DNA from: Candidatus Nanohaloarchaea archaeon
Lineage (GTDB): Archaea > Nanohalarchaeota > Nanosalinia > Nanosalinales > Nanosalinaceae
Length of the DNA stretch: 19,281 bases
Reading direction: 5' to 3'
Assembly: GCA_042218325.1 (NCBI GenBank)
Contig: JBDGRE010000015.1
Span: 6,110 to 25,390 of the forward strand
Shown here: piece by piece, positions 39 through 5,432 of the stretch
Layout: the number at the start of each line of letters is the position of its first letter
Numbering within the stretch: position 1 is the first letter of the stretch
Program-made: the position numbers and the translations under genes
Notes under the pieces: generated by a model
Database searches by the model: none
Told to the model about the DNA's origin: nothing
The model's input: the letters and a program-made list of their open reading frames with translations, nothing else

Positions 39-46
39 TTAAAAAG
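39..46 (+). promoter_or_regulatory. TATA box (TTAAAAAG) of the tRNA locus
   Basis: AT-rich box preceded by purine-rich BRE-like sequence. Spacing predicts a start at ~68-71, i.e. at the duplicated tRNA 5' fragment rather than at the intact tRNA (127). Confidence 0.65.
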
Positions 47-70: not shown

Positions 71-118
71 GGGCCGGTAGCTCAGTGCGAAGCTGACGCT
101 TCCTATCTGACCGACCGG
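71..118 (+). repeat. Duplicated tRNA-Lys 5' end followed by a hairpin and an imperfect inverted copy
   Basis: 71-86 GGGCCGGTAGCTCAGT is identical to 127-142. Hairpin GAAGC-TGAC-GCTTC at 89-102. 107-118 CTGACCGACCGG is a 10/12 reverse complement of 74-85. Confidence 0.9.
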
Positions 119-126
119 TAGAACAT

Positions 127-281
127 GGGCCGGTAGCTCAGTCTGGCAGAGCGCTTGGCTCTTAAGCGAACTTTCACGCGAAGTCTCGATCACGCGGGAA
201 CGCCCTCCACTTCGTTCCAGCGTCCTTCAAAAGTTCGTCGGAGTTACCAAGTGGTCGCGGGTTCAAATCCCGTCTGGCCCA
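127..281 (+). tRNA. tRNA-Lys(CTT) with an 81-nt intron at canonical position 37/38
   Basis: Acceptor GGGCCGG/CTGGCCC, D-stem GCTC/GAGC, anticodon stem CTTGG(154-158)/CCAAG(247-251), anticodon CTT at 161-163, T-arm GCGGG-TTCAAAT-CCCGT, discriminator A281. CCA is not encoded. Confidence 0.95.
165..245 (+). other. Archaeal tRNA intron with bulge-helix-bulge motif
   Basis: Central helix CTCT(159-162)/GGAG(240-243), 3-nt bulges TAA(163-165) and TTA(244-246), intron stem GCGAACTTT(166-174)/AAAGTTCGT(230-238). Confidence 0.9.
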
Positions 282-343
282 TCTCTTCGAAGATTCAGTG
301 AATCTTCTGCAAGAAGCTCAAGTCTTGAGCTTCTTCGAGATGG
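279..343 (+). repeat. Compound palindromic element (three-way junction) overlapping the tRNA 3' end
   Basis: CCATCTC(279-285)/GAGATGG(337-343) encloses the perfect hairpins GAAGATTC-AGT-GAATCTTC (289-307) and AAGAAGCTCAA-GTC-TTGAGCTTCTT (311-335). Confidence 0.9.
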
Positions 344-345
344 TT

Positions 346-407
346 GAGCCGGTATTTGGTCGCAGAAGATTTTTACATCTTCGAGTTCAAATCCCGTATG
401 GCCCATC
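346..407 (+). pseudogene. Degenerate tRNA-Lys-derived fragment (acceptor and T-arm, no D or anticodon arm, hairpin insert in the T-stem)
   Basis: GAGCCGGTA (346-354) is an 8/9 match to the tRNA 5' end. TGGTCGC (357-363) equals 252-258. A 19-nt insert (364-382) holds a GAAGAT/ATCTTC stem. 383-407 is 23/25 identical to 259-283. Confidence 0.75.
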
Positions 408-410
408 CCG

Positions 411-893
411 ATGGTAGAGCTTTTCACTGCTGCAGCGATTCTACTGCTGGTGCTGGCGATCGCGGGCAGCTTCACTCCGATGGTTCCCGGCGCGCTGCTG
501 TCGATAATCGGGCTCGGGGTCTACTGGTACGGCACCGGGTTCACAAGACCCGATGCCTGGTTCCTGGTCGCTTTCACGTTGACCGGGCTTCTCGCGGTCG
601 CGACCGACTACCTCTCCGGTATCATCGCGGCAAAGATGGGCGGCGCGACCACACGGAACTCCGCGATAGCTGGCGTTGTCGGCTTCCTGCTGTTCCTTGT
701 CCTCGGACCGCTGGGGATACTTCTCGGAGTCGCGGGGACAGTTCTGGCGCTGGAGTACCGCAGGACCGCTGACTCCATGGGAAGCATAAAGGCCGCGGGC
801 TACGCCTCGATAGGTGTTCTCGGCTCAACCGCAGTACAGTTCGTGATAACTGTCTCTCTTCTGCTGGCATTCATGATCGCGCTGCTGGTGTAG
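411..893 (+). CDS. DUF456-like integral membrane protein (160 aa)
   Basis: Multiple hydrophobic helices with motifs P(M)VPG, 'DYLSGIIAAKMGG' and 'LGPLGILLG', as recalled for DUF456/YqgC proteins. Confidence 0.75.
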   Translation: MVELFTAAAILLLVLAIAGSFTPMVPGALLSIIGLGVYWYGTGFTRPDAWFLVAFTLTGLLAVATDYLSGIIAAKMGGATTRNSAIAGVVGFLLFLVLGPLGILLGVAGTVLALEYRRTADSMGSIKAAGYASIGVLGSTAVQFVITVSLLLAFMIALLV

Positions 894-2378: not shown

Positions 2379-2694
2379 ATGCCGCAGCGCCAAACATTTC
2401 TCCCAGGGGATACCTCTGGGAGCACAGGCTCAAACCAAGACGAGGAATGAAGAAAACTTCTCAAAACCTGAGATACCCTCCGATGTAGAAGATGCCGGAT
2501 GGGAGCAAGAAAAGGCGTACCTCGCCATACAGGCCTTTCGGTGGTACTCGGACGAAGGCTTTCTCTATGTCGAGCACCGGCCGGATAACGAGACTGAATA
2601 CGAGCTGAAGTACCTCGAAGGCCGGTTCAATCCTGAAACACTGGCGGAAGGCCAGGAAGATGTTGCAAAAGCAGTCAACAGGATCCTCGGTTAG
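2379..2694 (+). pseudogene. Small acidic hypothetical protein split by an apparent 1-nt insertion (or a sequencing error)
   Basis: TATA-like TTTAAG at 2355-2360. ATG 2379 reads MPQRQTFLPGDTSGSTGSNQDEE then TGA 2448-2450. The +1 frame is open to TAG 2692-2694 and encodes EENFSKPEIPSDVEDAGWEQEKAYLAIQAFRWYSDEGFLYVEH...VNRILG, matching the acidic host proteome. Confidence 0.6.
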
Positions 2695-4610
2695 CCCGGG
2701 AAACCGGTTACTACAGTCTCGTACTCTCCGCCCTCGCCCGCGGCGTTAAAGCCGTACTCCCGGGATAGCTCTATCAGCTCCTCGACGGATTCGTCATCGA
2801 GGGTCCGTCCTGTCCAGCTATCGTCCAGGCCGCGGGCCGCCACCTCCGTTATCTCTACCTCGAAGCCCTCGCGGACGAGCCATCGCAGGTAGCTCTCCTG
2901 GTCCGTCATCCACAGCGGCGCGAACGCCTTCAATCCGAGCTTCTCAGCAACTTTCTCGACGCGGTCACGCTGGTAGGTCGAGGCGATGGCACCCGCCACT
3001 ACGCCCTCTACACCGTACTTCTCTTTTGCCACCCGCAGCCCTTCTTCCAGGTCTTCCAGCTCGGCCTCTTTCTTACCCTGCGTTTCACGGACCACAAGAG
3101 GGATCCCGAGTTCTCCTGCCTGCTCTTCGACTACAGTTCTCTGCTTCGAGTCGAACATGTAGCTATCAGGATTTTCCGACTGCAGGTTTACCAGGCACTC
3201 TATGTGCGAGTTCCGGCGCTGCATCCTGTAGAGCGCGGCGTTCGAATCCTTGCCGCCGGATGTCAGCGCCGCCAGGCAGTGGTTCGGCTCGTCGCGGAAC
3301 GAGTTCAGGTATCCCTGTTTGGAGTCGAAGCCGCTGTCTTTCGCGAGCCTGGAAAGCGCCTTGTCGAAGTTGCTACCGTACTGGGCCGCGGTCTTCTTCC
3401 GCCACGCCACCTTTTCCGGGACACCTATCTTCTCGGCGGCCTTCCTCAGCACGAGCTTCCGGTGCTGGTCCGACACCTTGAACTCTCCGGGAACAGTGAG
3501 TGCGTGCTCAACCAGTTCGTGGTCGAGGAACGGCAGCCTGAGTTCGTAGCCGTTCCTCATCGCTACCACGTCGTCGCGGTACAGGTCCCGGTGGAACAGG
3601 GAGCGGAGGCCGGAGAGACACTCCTGATTGAGCGCGCCCTGCTTCTGGCGGGAGTACCCGGCGTAGAGCTGCTCCGAGCCGAGGCCCGAGAAAACTACCT
3701 GCTCGCTGCCGTTCAGTGCCAGGTGGAAGGGTAGCGCCACTCCTATCTTGACCGGGCTGGGCGACGATACCCAGTCCACCAGTTCAGGGATGGTTCCCTC
3801 GACCTCATCCAACGTCGCCGTGTAGGACTCGAGTTCGAGCCCCATCTCCTCCGCGACTTCCTCCGCCCATTCAACATCCCGTGGCGCGTCGACGTTGCCG
3901 TGCTGGATACCGGCAGTGTAGCATGTGAATTCGACATCGAGCCCCTGTAAGGCGGCGGCGACCATCGTGGAGTCGACGCCACCAGAGAACAGCAGCGCGA
4001 CCTCGCCCTCCGGCACCCGCTTCTCAACAGCGTCCAGGAACCGGTCCTTGATCTTTTCCACCGCCTCTCCTATATCTTTTTCGCTTTCGTCGATATCAAA
4101 GAATTCACGCTGCTCGAACTCGAGCTCGTTCTCTTCGATATCATACCTCAGTACCTGTCGGGGATGCAGCTCCTGGGCCTCGAGACCTTCTTTTTCCAGC
4201 GCCTGTTTCTCGGAGGCGAACGCGAAGGGCTCACGGGAGTAGTATACCGGCTTGACACCGAGCAGGTCCCGGGCCAGTATGACCTCGTTTCCATGGACGT
4301 ATGCGAACGCGTAGACGCCGTCGAGATCCTGAAGCGCATCGACTCCTTTCCTGTCCAGTAGCTCAAGCAGCAGCTCGGCGTCGTTCTCCGCCTCTATCTC
4401 GTATCTGGCGGCGAGCTCCTGCCAGGTGTATATCTCGCAGTTCGCGACCAGCTTACCCTCTCCTTCCAGCGGCTGCTCGACGTGGCCCACGACCGGGTGG
4501 AGCACATGGCCGAGCGGCATATCTCCGTCAGCTGATGCAAAGGATTCGCCGCGGTGTCTTAGATGCTCGATGAGCACCTCAGCTTTTTCTCCGCCTGCTA
4601 TGCCGCACAT
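2691..4610 (-). CDS. Fusion of glutamine-hydrolysing asparagine synthetase-like (Ntn + PP-loop) domains with a C-terminal diphthine--ammonia ligase (Dph6) domain
   Basis: N-terminal MCGIAG (Ntn Cys), ARDLLGVKPVYY, SGGVDS, SGLGSEQLYAGY, RLPFLD, RKKTAAQYGS; then a second PP-loop SGGKDS, SYMF, GAIASTYQRDR, PLW and GEGGEYET. Confidence 0.9.
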   Translation of the reverse strand: MCGIAGGEKAEVLIEHLRHRGESFASADGDMPLGHVLHPVVGHVEQPLEGEGKLVANCEIYTWQELAARYEIEAENDAELLLELLDRKGVDALQDLDGVYAFAYVHGNEVILARDLLGVKPVYYSREPFAFASEKQALEKEGLEAQELHPRQVLRYDIEENELEFEQREFFDIDESEKDIGEAVEKIKDRFLDAVEKRVPEGEVALLFSGGVDSTMVAAALQGLDVEFTCYTAGIQHGNVDAPRDVEWAEEVAEEMGLELESYTATLDEVEGTIPELVDWVSSPSPVKIGVALPFHLALNGSEQVVFSGLGSEQLYAGYSRQKQGALNQECLSGLRSLFHRDLYRDDVVAMRNGYELRLPFLDHELVEHALTVPGEFKVSDQHRKLVLRKAAEKIGVPEKVAWRKKTAAQYGSNFDKALSRLAKDSGFDSKQGYLNSFRDEPNHCLAALTSGGKDSNAALYRMQRRNSHIECLVNLQSENPDSYMFDSKQRTVVEEQAGELGIPLVVRETQGKKEAELEDLEEGLRVAKEKYGVEGVVAGAIASTYQRDRVEKVAEKLGLKAFAPLWMTDQESYLRWLVREGFEVEITEVAARGLDDSWTGRTLDDESVEELIELSREYGFNAAGEGGEYETVVTGFPG

Positions 4611-4643: not shown

Positions 4644-5432
4644 CTACTCTACACTGTAGTCGGCGCCGAAGTCGCTTATCTCCTTCTGGCCGCGGTCTAT
4701 CGACTCGTAGCTGGCGATGACGTCCTCCATCTCGACCTCGACGAACTCCAGGCCCCGGTCCTGTAGATATTCAAGGACTTTCTCCGTCATCTTCGGCGCC
4801 ACGAGGATGCCGCGGACGTTCCCGGAGAACTCGTCCTCTATCTCCTTTACGTAGCGTTGCAGCTGGAGCACCGTGTTATAGTCAGGGTTGCGCTTGACTT
4901 CGATGACGACGTAGTCATCGTCCTCGTCCCGGGCGAAGACATCTATGAAGCCCGCGGGCGTCTCTCGCTCCCGCTCGATGACCTTCAGCCCTTCTTCCAC
5001 TATCTCCGGTTCATCCTCGATCGATTCGTGGATGTCGACCTCGTGGCCGCGTATCTTCAACTCCGACTTGTCCACCATCTTGGAAACAGTTACAAGGTCG
5101 AGCGACTCGAAACGTATCTCCACAAGCTCCTCGGGGTTCGTCCTTCTGGCGGCCAGCACCAGTTCCTCGTTCTCCCCGTCCACCTCGACGTCGTAGCTGT
5201 CGACCTCGGGCTGCCAGTTCTTGGGCTGGTAGTTCTCCGGGCCGTGGACCAGTAAAGCTGAGTCCTGCTTCTTGATGACGATGCGCTCACCCCTGTCCAG
5301 CTTCGACTTCGCGCGGCCCTGGTAGTTGACCGAACAGAGCCCGTTTAACTGGAGAGTGTAGGCCCGGGAAACGTACTCCTCGATGATGTCTTTCGCGCGG
5401 GAGAAATCCGGGTTTTCGACCAGTTCTTCCAT
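4644..5432 (-). CDS. nucS: Endonuclease NucS/EndoMS
   Basis: CSVNYQGRAKSKL, IKKQDSALLVH, PKNWQP, GFIDV...IEVKR, QLQRY, VRGILVAP, and a C-terminal PIP-box-like QKEISDF. Confidence 0.95.
   Translation of the reverse strand: MEELVENPDFSRAKDIIEEYVSRAYTLQLNGLCSVNYQGRAKSKLDRGERIVIKKQDSALLVHGPENYQPKNWQPEVDSYDVEVDGENEELVLAARRTNPEELVEIRFESLDLVTVSKMVDKSELKIRGHEVDIHESIEDEPEIVEEGLKVIERERETPAGFIDVFARDEDDDYVVIEVKRNPDYNTVLQLQRYVKEIEDEFSGNVRGILVAPKMTEKVLEYLQDRGLEFVEVEMEDVIASYESIDRGQKEISDFGADYSVE

Follow-up and report, generated by a model that had tools for sequence, protein, structure and literature searches.

Displaced ends beside an intact tRNA-Lys gene of a nanohaloarchaeon: one case of short, hairpin-bearing units at tRNA genes across Nanohaloarchaeota

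The stretch of DNA analysed here (the window; 19,281 nucleotides, nt) belongs to a Candidatus Nanohaloarchaea archaeon whose genome spans 1.07 Mb in 35 contigs and is 96% complete (our handle G000, with the window at G000:C7:6110-25390; G, C, L and f denote genomes, contigs, loci and families). Matching DNA is found in salt-lake metagenomes. Near its start, the window carries a transfer RNA gene, tRNA-Lys(CUU), which is flanked on both sides by copies of its own ends, each accompanied by a hairpin. We find that this locus is one case of a phylum-wide, labile and apparently undescribed class of units at tRNA ends, and that the outer copies stand where the ends of the gene itself stand in relatives without such units.

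The sole Rfam tRNA in the window is the match at 127-281 (RF00005, 53.6 bits, E 3.2e-09, cut-off 29, model positions 1-71), and its anticodon loop, CTCTTAA, gives CUU (Lys). ARAGORN makes no call in the window by default and reports tRNA-Lys(ctt) with its intron option. The intron is framed by a standard bulge-helix-bulge motif with a central helix of 4/4 pairs, an anticodon stem of 5/5 pairs and the bulges UAA/UUA, and the splice sites fall after 164 and 245. The genome also encodes a splicing endonuclease (PF01974, 98.8 bits, a 194-residue open frame at G000:C1:109260-109541). With its cloverleaf, its bulge-helix-bulge and this genome-encoded endonuclease, the gene at 127-281 shows each of the features tested for an archaeal tRNA with a canonical intron. 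Among relatives, the intron at the 165-245 position is absent or different.

A preliminary description of this DNA had reported a perfect copy of the tRNA 5' end upstream of the gene, a hairpin after that copy, and a downstream 3' copy split by a second hairpin; all three hold (Table 1). Once the hairpin at 364-382 is removed, the two parts of the 3' copy (357-363 plus 383-407) agree with tRNA 252-283 at 30/32 positions, and 382-407 agrees with 258-283 at 24 of 26; the changes are A384 and A398. The 5' and 3' repeat motifs each occur exactly twice in the window, whereas two matches were found in 0/200 shuffles, and the 7-mer TGGTCGC lies equally near the hairpin in 12 of 20,000 shuffles. Relative to a plain locus, the inserts measure 56 base pairs (bp) after nt 16, in the D-loop, and 124 bp before the T-loop, in the T-arm, and neither contains an open reading frame (ORF). 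The outer pair was also said to be probably unable to make a tRNA alone, which is correct in that nt 17-43 are missing from it. A split or permuted tRNA gene was considered and rejected, since the tRNA is encoded in one contiguous gene and nt 17-43 have no counterpart in the outer pieces.

In the 5' insert, the leader hairpin has orthologues at the same place in three relatives, with the stems GAAGC/GCTTC (G008), GAAAACCG/CGGTTTTC (G004), and GAAGCA/TGCTTC (G007). Behind it lies an inverted stretch, and in the isolated leader fold 73-86 pairs with 106-118 at -26 kcal/mol. This stretch is kept in G008, with 26/31 identities over hairpin and inverted stretch, whereas the adjoining spacers diverge. 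A D-loop-like sequence noted earlier, CCGGTAGAAC at 115-124, does match tRNA nt 4-13 at 8/10 positions, but this single-locus match is not found in G008 and may be due to chance.

In the 3' insert, the spacer at 282-345 has 16-27-nt matches elsewhere in the same genome (C5, C32, and C12). Further on, 349-358 (CCGGTATTTG) is similar to the T-loop read in reverse complement and overlaps 357-363 (TGGTCGC), which equals tRNA 252-258—i.e. the variable loop and the 5' strand of the T-stem; of these overlapping readings, either may hold. Positions 346-354 (GAGCCGGTA) match tRNA nt 1-9 at 8/9 positions, again a single-locus match. A module homologous to the 346-363 region also follows tRNA-Lys(UUU) in this genome (65-nt local alignment), and hairpins near-identical to that at 364-382 (GCAGAAGAACTTGCTTCTTCGA) occupy the corresponding position in units beside other tRNAs and in other genera.

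Table 1. Features of the tRNA-Lys(CUU) locus, in window coordinates
Feature	Position	Strand	Basis
TTAAAAAG, archaeal TATA-like box	39..46	+	Read from sequence; promoter function inferred
Outer 5' copy of tRNA nt 1-16	71..86	+	16/16 vs 127-142; also in G008, G004, G007
Leader hairpin GAAGC-TGAC-GCTTC	89..102	+	Stem 89-93/98-102, loop 94-97
Imperfect inverted copy of tRNA nt 4-15, TCTGACCGACCGG	106..118	+	Able to pair with either 5' copy
tRNA-Lys(CUU) exon 1	127..164	+	Rfam match; splice-site analysis
Canonical 37/38 intron, 81 nt	165..245	+	Standard bulge-helix-bulge
tRNA-Lys(CUU) exon 2	246..281	+	Rfam match; splice-site analysis
3'-insert spacer with two hairpins (289-307, 313-333) of the genome-wide GAAR...YTTC family	282..345	+	Hairpin scan
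Left part of 3' unit	346..363	+	Motif matches; local alignment
19-nt hairpin inside T-stem of outer 3' copy	364..382	+	Stem 365-370/377-382
Outer 3' copy: T-stem remainder, T-loop, acceptor 3' strand, A73, TC	383..407	+	23/25 vs 259-283
DUF456 membrane protein gene	411..893	+	Pfam DUF456, E 7.8e-24

Such an arrangement could be produced by repeats that were collapsed or chimerically joined in a metagenome-assembled genome, especially as the assembly is in 35 contigs, tRNA repeats are assembly-prone, and a run of N (G000:C7:6106-6109) directly precedes window position 1. It is, however, extremely unlikely to be the cause here. Independent contigs of a possible, indeed likely, source run cover 1-156, 136-275, and 246-1200, and bridge all junctions without differences. 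The same build is present in the single-contig genomes G001 and G007, and in contigs of another study, one of which matches 72-142 with 9 differences and so contains the outer copy, the hairpin, and the start of the inner gene as they stand in a relative. At the level of contigs, the arrangement is thus real.

The flanks of the locus bear on which copy is ancestral. The TATA-like box had been called the only clear one, spaced for the outer copy; it lies 32 nt upstream of the outer 5' copy, and 87-126 is without any A/T box. In four relatives that lack the 5' unit, a TTAAAAAG-type box stands 35-43 nt before the tRNA itself, and in relatives with or without the unit the box stands 33-43 nt before the first tRNA-like 5' end. 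On the other side, the DUF456 start codon (411) follows 3 nt past the end of the outer 3' copy, and in the unit-free G009 and G015 the homologous DUF456 ORF begins 2-5 nt after the tRNA end. Because the promoter-box and DUF456 spacings both match those of unit-free relatives, the outer copies hold the ancestral end positions, and we therefore read the locus as two short inserts, each with a replacement end, that displaced the old ends. Judged from sequence comparison, these spacings show the outer 5' and 3' copies to be the displaced ancestral ends of the tRNA-Lys gene. The preliminary description had suggested that an ancestral tRNA-Lys was rescued by an intact copy within it; the ancestral positions are borne out, but the nesting is not, because many tRNA genes carry a unit on one side only, which argues for two independent small insertions rather than one gene inside another.

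The arrangement is not unique to this genome. At the tRNA-Lys locus, 5' units are present in G008, G004, and G007 (in G003 the unit is truncated where the contig stops), and 3' units occur in G006, as a tandem pair in G012, and as two units at tRNA-Lys-UUU in G001; the remaining relatives have a plain gene, often intron-less. We counted units at all tRNA genes by one rule: a 5' copy was a 16-mer found in the 200 nt upstream with no more than 2 mismatches, and a 3' copy a 22-mer found in the 260 nt downstream with no more than 4. By this rule, the 35 tRNA genes of G000 have 5' copies at 5 and 3' copies at 7, with both at 3 (Lys-CUU, Leu-GAG, and Leu-TAG), against wrong-side controls of 0 (5') and 1 (3'). 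The whole genome of a congener, G001, also has 35 tRNA genes, of which 3 carry a 5' copy, 7 a 3' copy, and 0 both (wrong-side controls 0 and 0). Across the phylum, a proxy for 3' units (GATTYG-N12-45-GTTCRAATC) gives 228 matches in 58/70 Nanohaloarchaeota genomes, including a few inside tRNA-Ser genes and with palindromic units counted on both strands, compared with 4 for the reversed pattern. When 185,579 species were scanned with a related pattern, 14 of the 80 listed loci fell in Nanohaloarchaea, Nanosalina, Nanohalobium, and Asbonarchaeaceae. Literature searches, which did not cover the supplementary tRNA tables of nanohaloarchaeal genome papers, found no published description of tRNA-end units.

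From the gene body outward, a unit consists of the gene end, a spacer (2-65 nt), an imperfect inverted D-loop/T-loop motif, a hairpin, and the displaced end, and 5' and 3' units are mirror images of each other in this build. The hairpins have GAAR...YTTC stems, often followed by GA, and other members of this family are found between cistrons and within the canonical introns of these tRNAs. A 47-nt module, GATTTGATAGCCTCCAGAAAATCTCCGATTTTCGTCGGGGTTCAAATC, is nearly identical beside different tRNAs in families f1, f3, and f4, and a 28-nt core is 96% identical between two G001 units. We also looked for a tRNA-specific inverted motif beyond the T-loop and rejected it, since 39 units average 5.64/12 matches compared with 5.45 for mismatched pairs. 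The inverted part is essentially the complement of the universal T-loop.

Between the two congeners G000 and G001, units are mostly at different tRNAs. Of the units they share, the one at tRNA-Tyr has lost its outer copy in G001, and that at tRNA-Phe has its outer copy split by a further hairpin in G000. As judged from these alignments, the turnover points to frequent gain and neutral loss, at least of 3' copies. In two cases the outer 3' copy comes from a different tRNA than the adjoining gene (G000:C16:8819-8878, after Arg-CCT; G050 L227:246-307, after Pro-CGG), which suggests module transfer or rearrangement at repeats.

Local replication errors could in principle create a direct and an inverted copy of a gene end with no mobile DNA at all, if hairpins close to tRNA genes under heavy transcription provoked tandem duplication or a switch of template. 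The units are indeed long imperfect palindromes centred on the hairpin, and many of those in f3 and f4 match on both strands. The TTCGA at the 3' ends of hairpins is microhomologous to the T-loop, and 17 nt that follow tRNA-Lys(UUU) in G001 recur after the last outer copy, so duplication can include the flank. Slippage, however, predicts a spacer repeated past the outer copy, a pattern absent from the window and from most units, and it explains neither the near-identical 28-47-nt modules at different tRNAs and in different families nor the outer copies of foreign tRNA in G000 (Arg-CCT) and G050 (Pro-CGG). Replication error is thus a quite improbable source of the units.

Our preferred reading, to which we give a probability of roughly 0.6, is that the locus holds one functional, intron-containing tRNA-Lys(CUU) whose ends were displaced by two hairpin-bearing inserts, the outer 3' copy being a relic and the outer 5' copy part of a leader, and that it belongs to the labile class found across the phylum. 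A short hairpin-bearing DNA would have invaded the gene twice, with 56 bp at the D-loop and 124 bp at the T-arm. Each insert would have brought a fresh copy of the adjoining tRNA end, thereby restoring the gene, and would have pushed the original end outward, so that 71-86 stayed by the old promoter and 383-407 by the old downstream gene. We infer that the inserts arrived by site-directed recombination or as mobile modules. The inner gene would make the tRNA, and the outer 3' copy would be left to decay. Transcription probably begins at the outer 5' copy, driven by the upstream box, so that this copy would supply the initial 16 nt of a 56-nt leader, and RNase P would then remove this leader. 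Such removal is plausible because an RNase P RNA candidate is present (G000:C24:14570-14927, full length to the archaeal model at 48.6 bits, below the cut-off of 84). Displaced 5' and 3' tRNA fragments beside a reconstituted gene are a known outcome of integration into archaeal tRNA genes, and the two-insertion reading follows the same logic at both termini (PMC3293823).

Several observations weigh against this view. We find no recombinase, transposase, or nuclease tied to the units in G000, and the units, at 40-125 bp, are far below the size of any known integrative element. The step in which an end is copied is unexplained, because each unit's end is tRNA-specific and a single generic mobile module cannot bring that. 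Between genera, some parts of the 5' unit have changed less than the surrounding spacers, and the leader helix of the tRNA-Leu units covaries between congeners (GCTCAC/GTGAGC vs GCTTGCC/GGCAAGC); both hint at function rather than at a scar. Finally, the far border of a candidate integrated element at tRNA-Arg(GCG), described below, has neither inverted motif nor hairpin.

The search for a mobility gene included two further candidates. Y1 transposase (PF01797) has 0 matches in G000, at 96% completeness. A GIY-YIG nuclease cassette was rejected, as no small GIY-YIG gene abuts the units or co-distributes with them. The GIY-YIG candidates in G000 are a single-copy DUF123 gene and two weak tandem ORFs (C1:193617-193982 and C1:207670-208473). 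About 0.9 kb separate the DUF123 gene from tRNA-Ser(CGA), a gene without a unit, and DUF123 occurs in 53/70 genomes, including unit-free ones, while being absent from several unit-rich but incomplete ones. No C/D-box or H/ACA guide motifs were seen in the units by eye, and Rfam at a permissive threshold returned only tRNAs and sub-threshold noise at 11 loci, including a 22-bit mascRNA-like hit on one unit.

The displaced ends might instead be ordinary attachment (att) scars, left by large virus or plasmid elements that once lay between inner and outer copies and were later almost wholly deleted, down to the attL/attR repeats and a few nucleotides of the arms. Integration is known to give rise to 5' and 3' tRNA fragments (PMC3293823). 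The 1.07 Mb of G000 contain seven tyrosine-recombinase genes, all on contigs other than that of the window, and three of them adjoin tRNA genes by coordinates (Arg-GCG, Ala-TGC, and Asn; C30:2398-25122, C5:16396-17436, and C25:6849-8006). Furthermore, tRNA-Pro(TGG) is followed by an 840-bp AT-rich insert and then by three displaced 3' copies (G000:C2:58851-59960), two of which are preceded by family hairpins. The insert holds a 227-residue ORF with the motif HNHPAGNPNPSEAD, which we take to be RadC/JAB-like. Further orphan tRNA-Pro 3' ends are found on contigs C5, C16, C20, and C26 of G000. A tRNA at C23:15160 has an exact 3' repeat 2.3 kb downstream.

Against such scars stands the need for at least 20 independent near-total deletions, all ending within 40-125 bp and all keeping the inverted motif and hairpin. 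We compared junctions with one integrated element of G000, the candidate at tRNA-Arg(GCG), which has an integrase directly downstream of the tRNA and a partial 3' repeat about 22.5 kb away, and its far border lacks the unit build. A viral origin was rejected, as the hairpin-T-loop pattern gave one hit in viral contigs, in a coding region of an unrelated low-GC contig, which we attribute to chance. The window neighbours are all housekeeping genes: a TIP49/RuvB-like ATPase (947-2284) and, on the minus strand, a 639-residue protein in which asparagine-synthase-like and diphthamide-synthase domains are fused (2691-4610), and NucS (4644-5432). Compared with archaeal attL/attR borders, the locus has the terminus repeat with a reconstituted gene, but no integrase or cargo in the insert and no shared junction build. 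We thus regard deleted elements as an unlikely origin.

The fate of the RNA may also differ from what the preferred reading supposes. In a tentative alternative, which otherwise overlaps that reading, the outer copy is the 5' end of the transcript and the 5' unit either already is a non-canonical intron or is on the way to one. The endonuclease would cut after outer nt 9 (79) and inner nt 9 (135) within a bulge-helix-bulge built from the repeats themselves, and a ligase would join the exons. The spliced product would be identical to the RNase P product, making the two routes compatible, and whichever copy decays would decide between a scar and an obligatory intron. A strict in-register motif does form in 4/4 tRNA-Lys loci that have the 5' unit, with a central helix CCGG/CCGG of 4/4 pairs, the bulges UAG/UAG, and outer helices of 2-5 and 3-4 contiguous pairs; for 80-135 in the window, the flanking helices have 3 and 4 pairs, and the register restores the tRNA. 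By comparison, off-register positions at the tRNA-Lys(CUU) locus give a strict motif in 4/1026 trials. In free-energy folds of 71-281 and 71-407, inner and outer conformations are near-equal, with forced inner and outer acceptor folds 1 kcal/mol apart (-82.7 vs -83.7). The single splicing-endonuclease gene of G000 also fits, as does tRNA-Gly(GCC), where the outer 5' piece is the real exon 1.

On the other hand, the motif follows automatically from duplicating GGGCCGGUAGCUC, so selection is not needed for it, and because it follows from the sequence of the duplicated end it is no evidence of selection. Splicing of the 80-135 unit is dispensable, as the inner copy alone gives a complete tRNA-Lys gene, and the motif would have to form in competition with the leader hairpin (-26 kcal/mol). 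Splicing as a general property of the units was rejected. Only 4/13 units in G000 have the motif in register, against a rough off-register expectation of about 1; that of the tRNA-Tyr 3' unit is trivial, lying at the very end, and the Cys, Pro, and Leu 5' units have none. A nested precursor with alternative pairing, the other possibility raised in the preliminary description, is possible, and gains support because the strict motif occurs in 4/4 Lys loci and the outer piece at tRNA-Gly(GCC) is a real exon.

At that second gene (G000:C16:5918-6048, minus strand; the only such gene found in G000, with 1 match), the outer 5' piece is contiguous with the tRNA body in G007, G003, G023, G009, G020, and G015. 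By contrast, G000, G001, G012, G050, and G005 carry a 51-59-nt D-loop insert that ends in a decayed copy of exon 1 (L248, L249, L250, and L255 besides the G000 locus). The defective inner version is the only one that standard tools score; it reaches 33.6 bits as annotated and, by reading of its sequence, has no D-stem. The repeat-built motif, GGCU/GGCU, forms in 76/77 cells, compared with 26-48% when slid, and a helix internal to the intron has two compensatory pairs; the alignment, however, consists of 5 sequences in which the motif helices are invariant. The G005 gene also carries a canonical intron. From these features, the insert appears to be an obligatory intron in the five genomes; like units would thus appear as an obligatory intron at tRNA-Gly(GCC) and as a redundant leader at tRNA-Lys.

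More speculatively, the units could represent the birth stage of non-canonical archaeal tRNA introns, a doubtful idea under which tRNA-Lys would be undecided and its 56-nt leader segment spliced at least some of the time. A hairpin module and a duplicate of the adjoining exon end would land in the D-loop or T-loop, and the exon copies would pair via a self-complementary tetranucleotide into a bulge-helix-bulge that is spliceable from the first day. Decay of the inner copy would then yield an obligatory intron, as at tRNA-Gly(GCC), and decay of the outer copy a scar. An Asgard tRNA-gene preprint says of introns that 'how they arrive remains open' (10.64898/2026.10.13.758758). The redundant state at tRNA-Lys and the apparent fixed state at tRNA-Gly(GCC) make one route of intron origin testable, and the units may be how some unusual tRNA introns of Nanohaloarchaeota begin.

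The units are datable young insertions at both loops that host non-canonical introns, in genomes of about 1 Mb, some of which belong to cultivable co-cultures. Even as plain scars, they would amount to a catalogued class of repeats, so far undescribed, in a reduced genome. They also affect tRNA annotation in these genomes, where outer fragments and split genes are missed or mis-scored.

Other observations concern the units at tRNA-Leu genes and the wider hairpin family. Within each genome, tRNA-Leu(GAG) and tRNA-Leu(TAG) have nearly identical 5' units (G000:C23:24777-24838 and C31:64858-64919; in G001 upstream of 248467 and 931276), and these contain, about 21-28 nt upstream of the inner gene, an A-rich box that may be a new promoter. 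In the tRNA-Lys intron, nt 1-37 (window 167-203) are 97% identical to an intergenic stretch beside a start codon in another genus (L024, G005:C3:58636-58695), and because of this match introns and spacers seem to share one pool of small modules. In several genera, tRNA-Lys introns start with the motif CTGGTTACGCTCRG...ACACGCAA (L011, L013, L014, L017, and L027), which also occurs in tRNA flanks (G000:C31 before tRNA-Ala(GGC), and C1:68900-68990) and in a 3'-unit spacer (L218:185-210). Pairs of GAAAAY...RTTTTC hairpins fill intercistronic spacers directly before GTG or ATG starts (among others G000:C1:96905-96952, C1:98718-98765, C2:3031-3078, C23:6791-6838, and C16:18329-18374). The second hairpin of a pair has a Shine-Dalgarno-like GAGGTG in its loop, and the genes that follow are ribosomal-protein genes as read from their N-terminal translations. 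Scanning for perfect stems of at least 6 pairs gave 210 strand-wise matches, with every hairpin counted on both strands, and therefore about 105 hairpins.

Among known systems, the units are like archaeal attL/attR borders (of SSV-type and pNOB8-type integrases) in the reconstituted gene, the terminal direct repeat, the outer copy by the original flank, and the ability to stack (PMC3293823). They differ in being 40-125 bp long without a gene, in lying at both ends of one gene, in their inverted motif and hairpin, and in having no linked integrase. An analogy can also be drawn with folded single-strand att sites such as integron attC and the CTX phage attP. Single-strand hairpin integration leaves a hybrid site, cargo, an inverted site, a loop, and a hybrid site, which is the order of a unit, and the tandem units of G012, G001, and G040 resemble integron cassette arrays, by analogy only. 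The unit cores, however, do not appear to fit the attC consensus, and only 2-65 nt stand in the place of the cargo.

Bacterial REP/BIME and Rickettsia palindromic elements are miniature palindromic repeats of small genomes. The units share with them the multi-copy, conserved short hairpins in spacers and RNA-gene flanks of a reduced genome, and the NTS/SRM hairpins of Ssn nucleases are comparable repeats (PMC11893778). In contrast to both, G000 has no Y1 transposase, and its single-copy DUF123 gene does not track unit counts. We know of no REP/BIME-type or Ssn repeat family that is tied to tRNA ends with end duplication.

The closest parallel on the RNA side is with non-canonical bulge-helix-bulge introns of the D-arm and T-arm, for which background on splicing-endonuclease types and DPANN is available (PMC5829648). 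Our searches found no literature report of repeat-built bulge-helix-bulge motifs; short direct repeats have been described near the splice sites of many introns, a few archaeal introns among them, though we saw no repeat-built motif reported there (PMC11782384). Known introns and the 5' unit alike have an intervening sequence in the D-loop region, with 3-nt bulges on either side of a 4-bp helix. In the window, however, the central helix comes from two repeat copies rather than from exon-intron complementarity, and the 'intron' holds a full working copy of exon 1, so that splicing would be optional.

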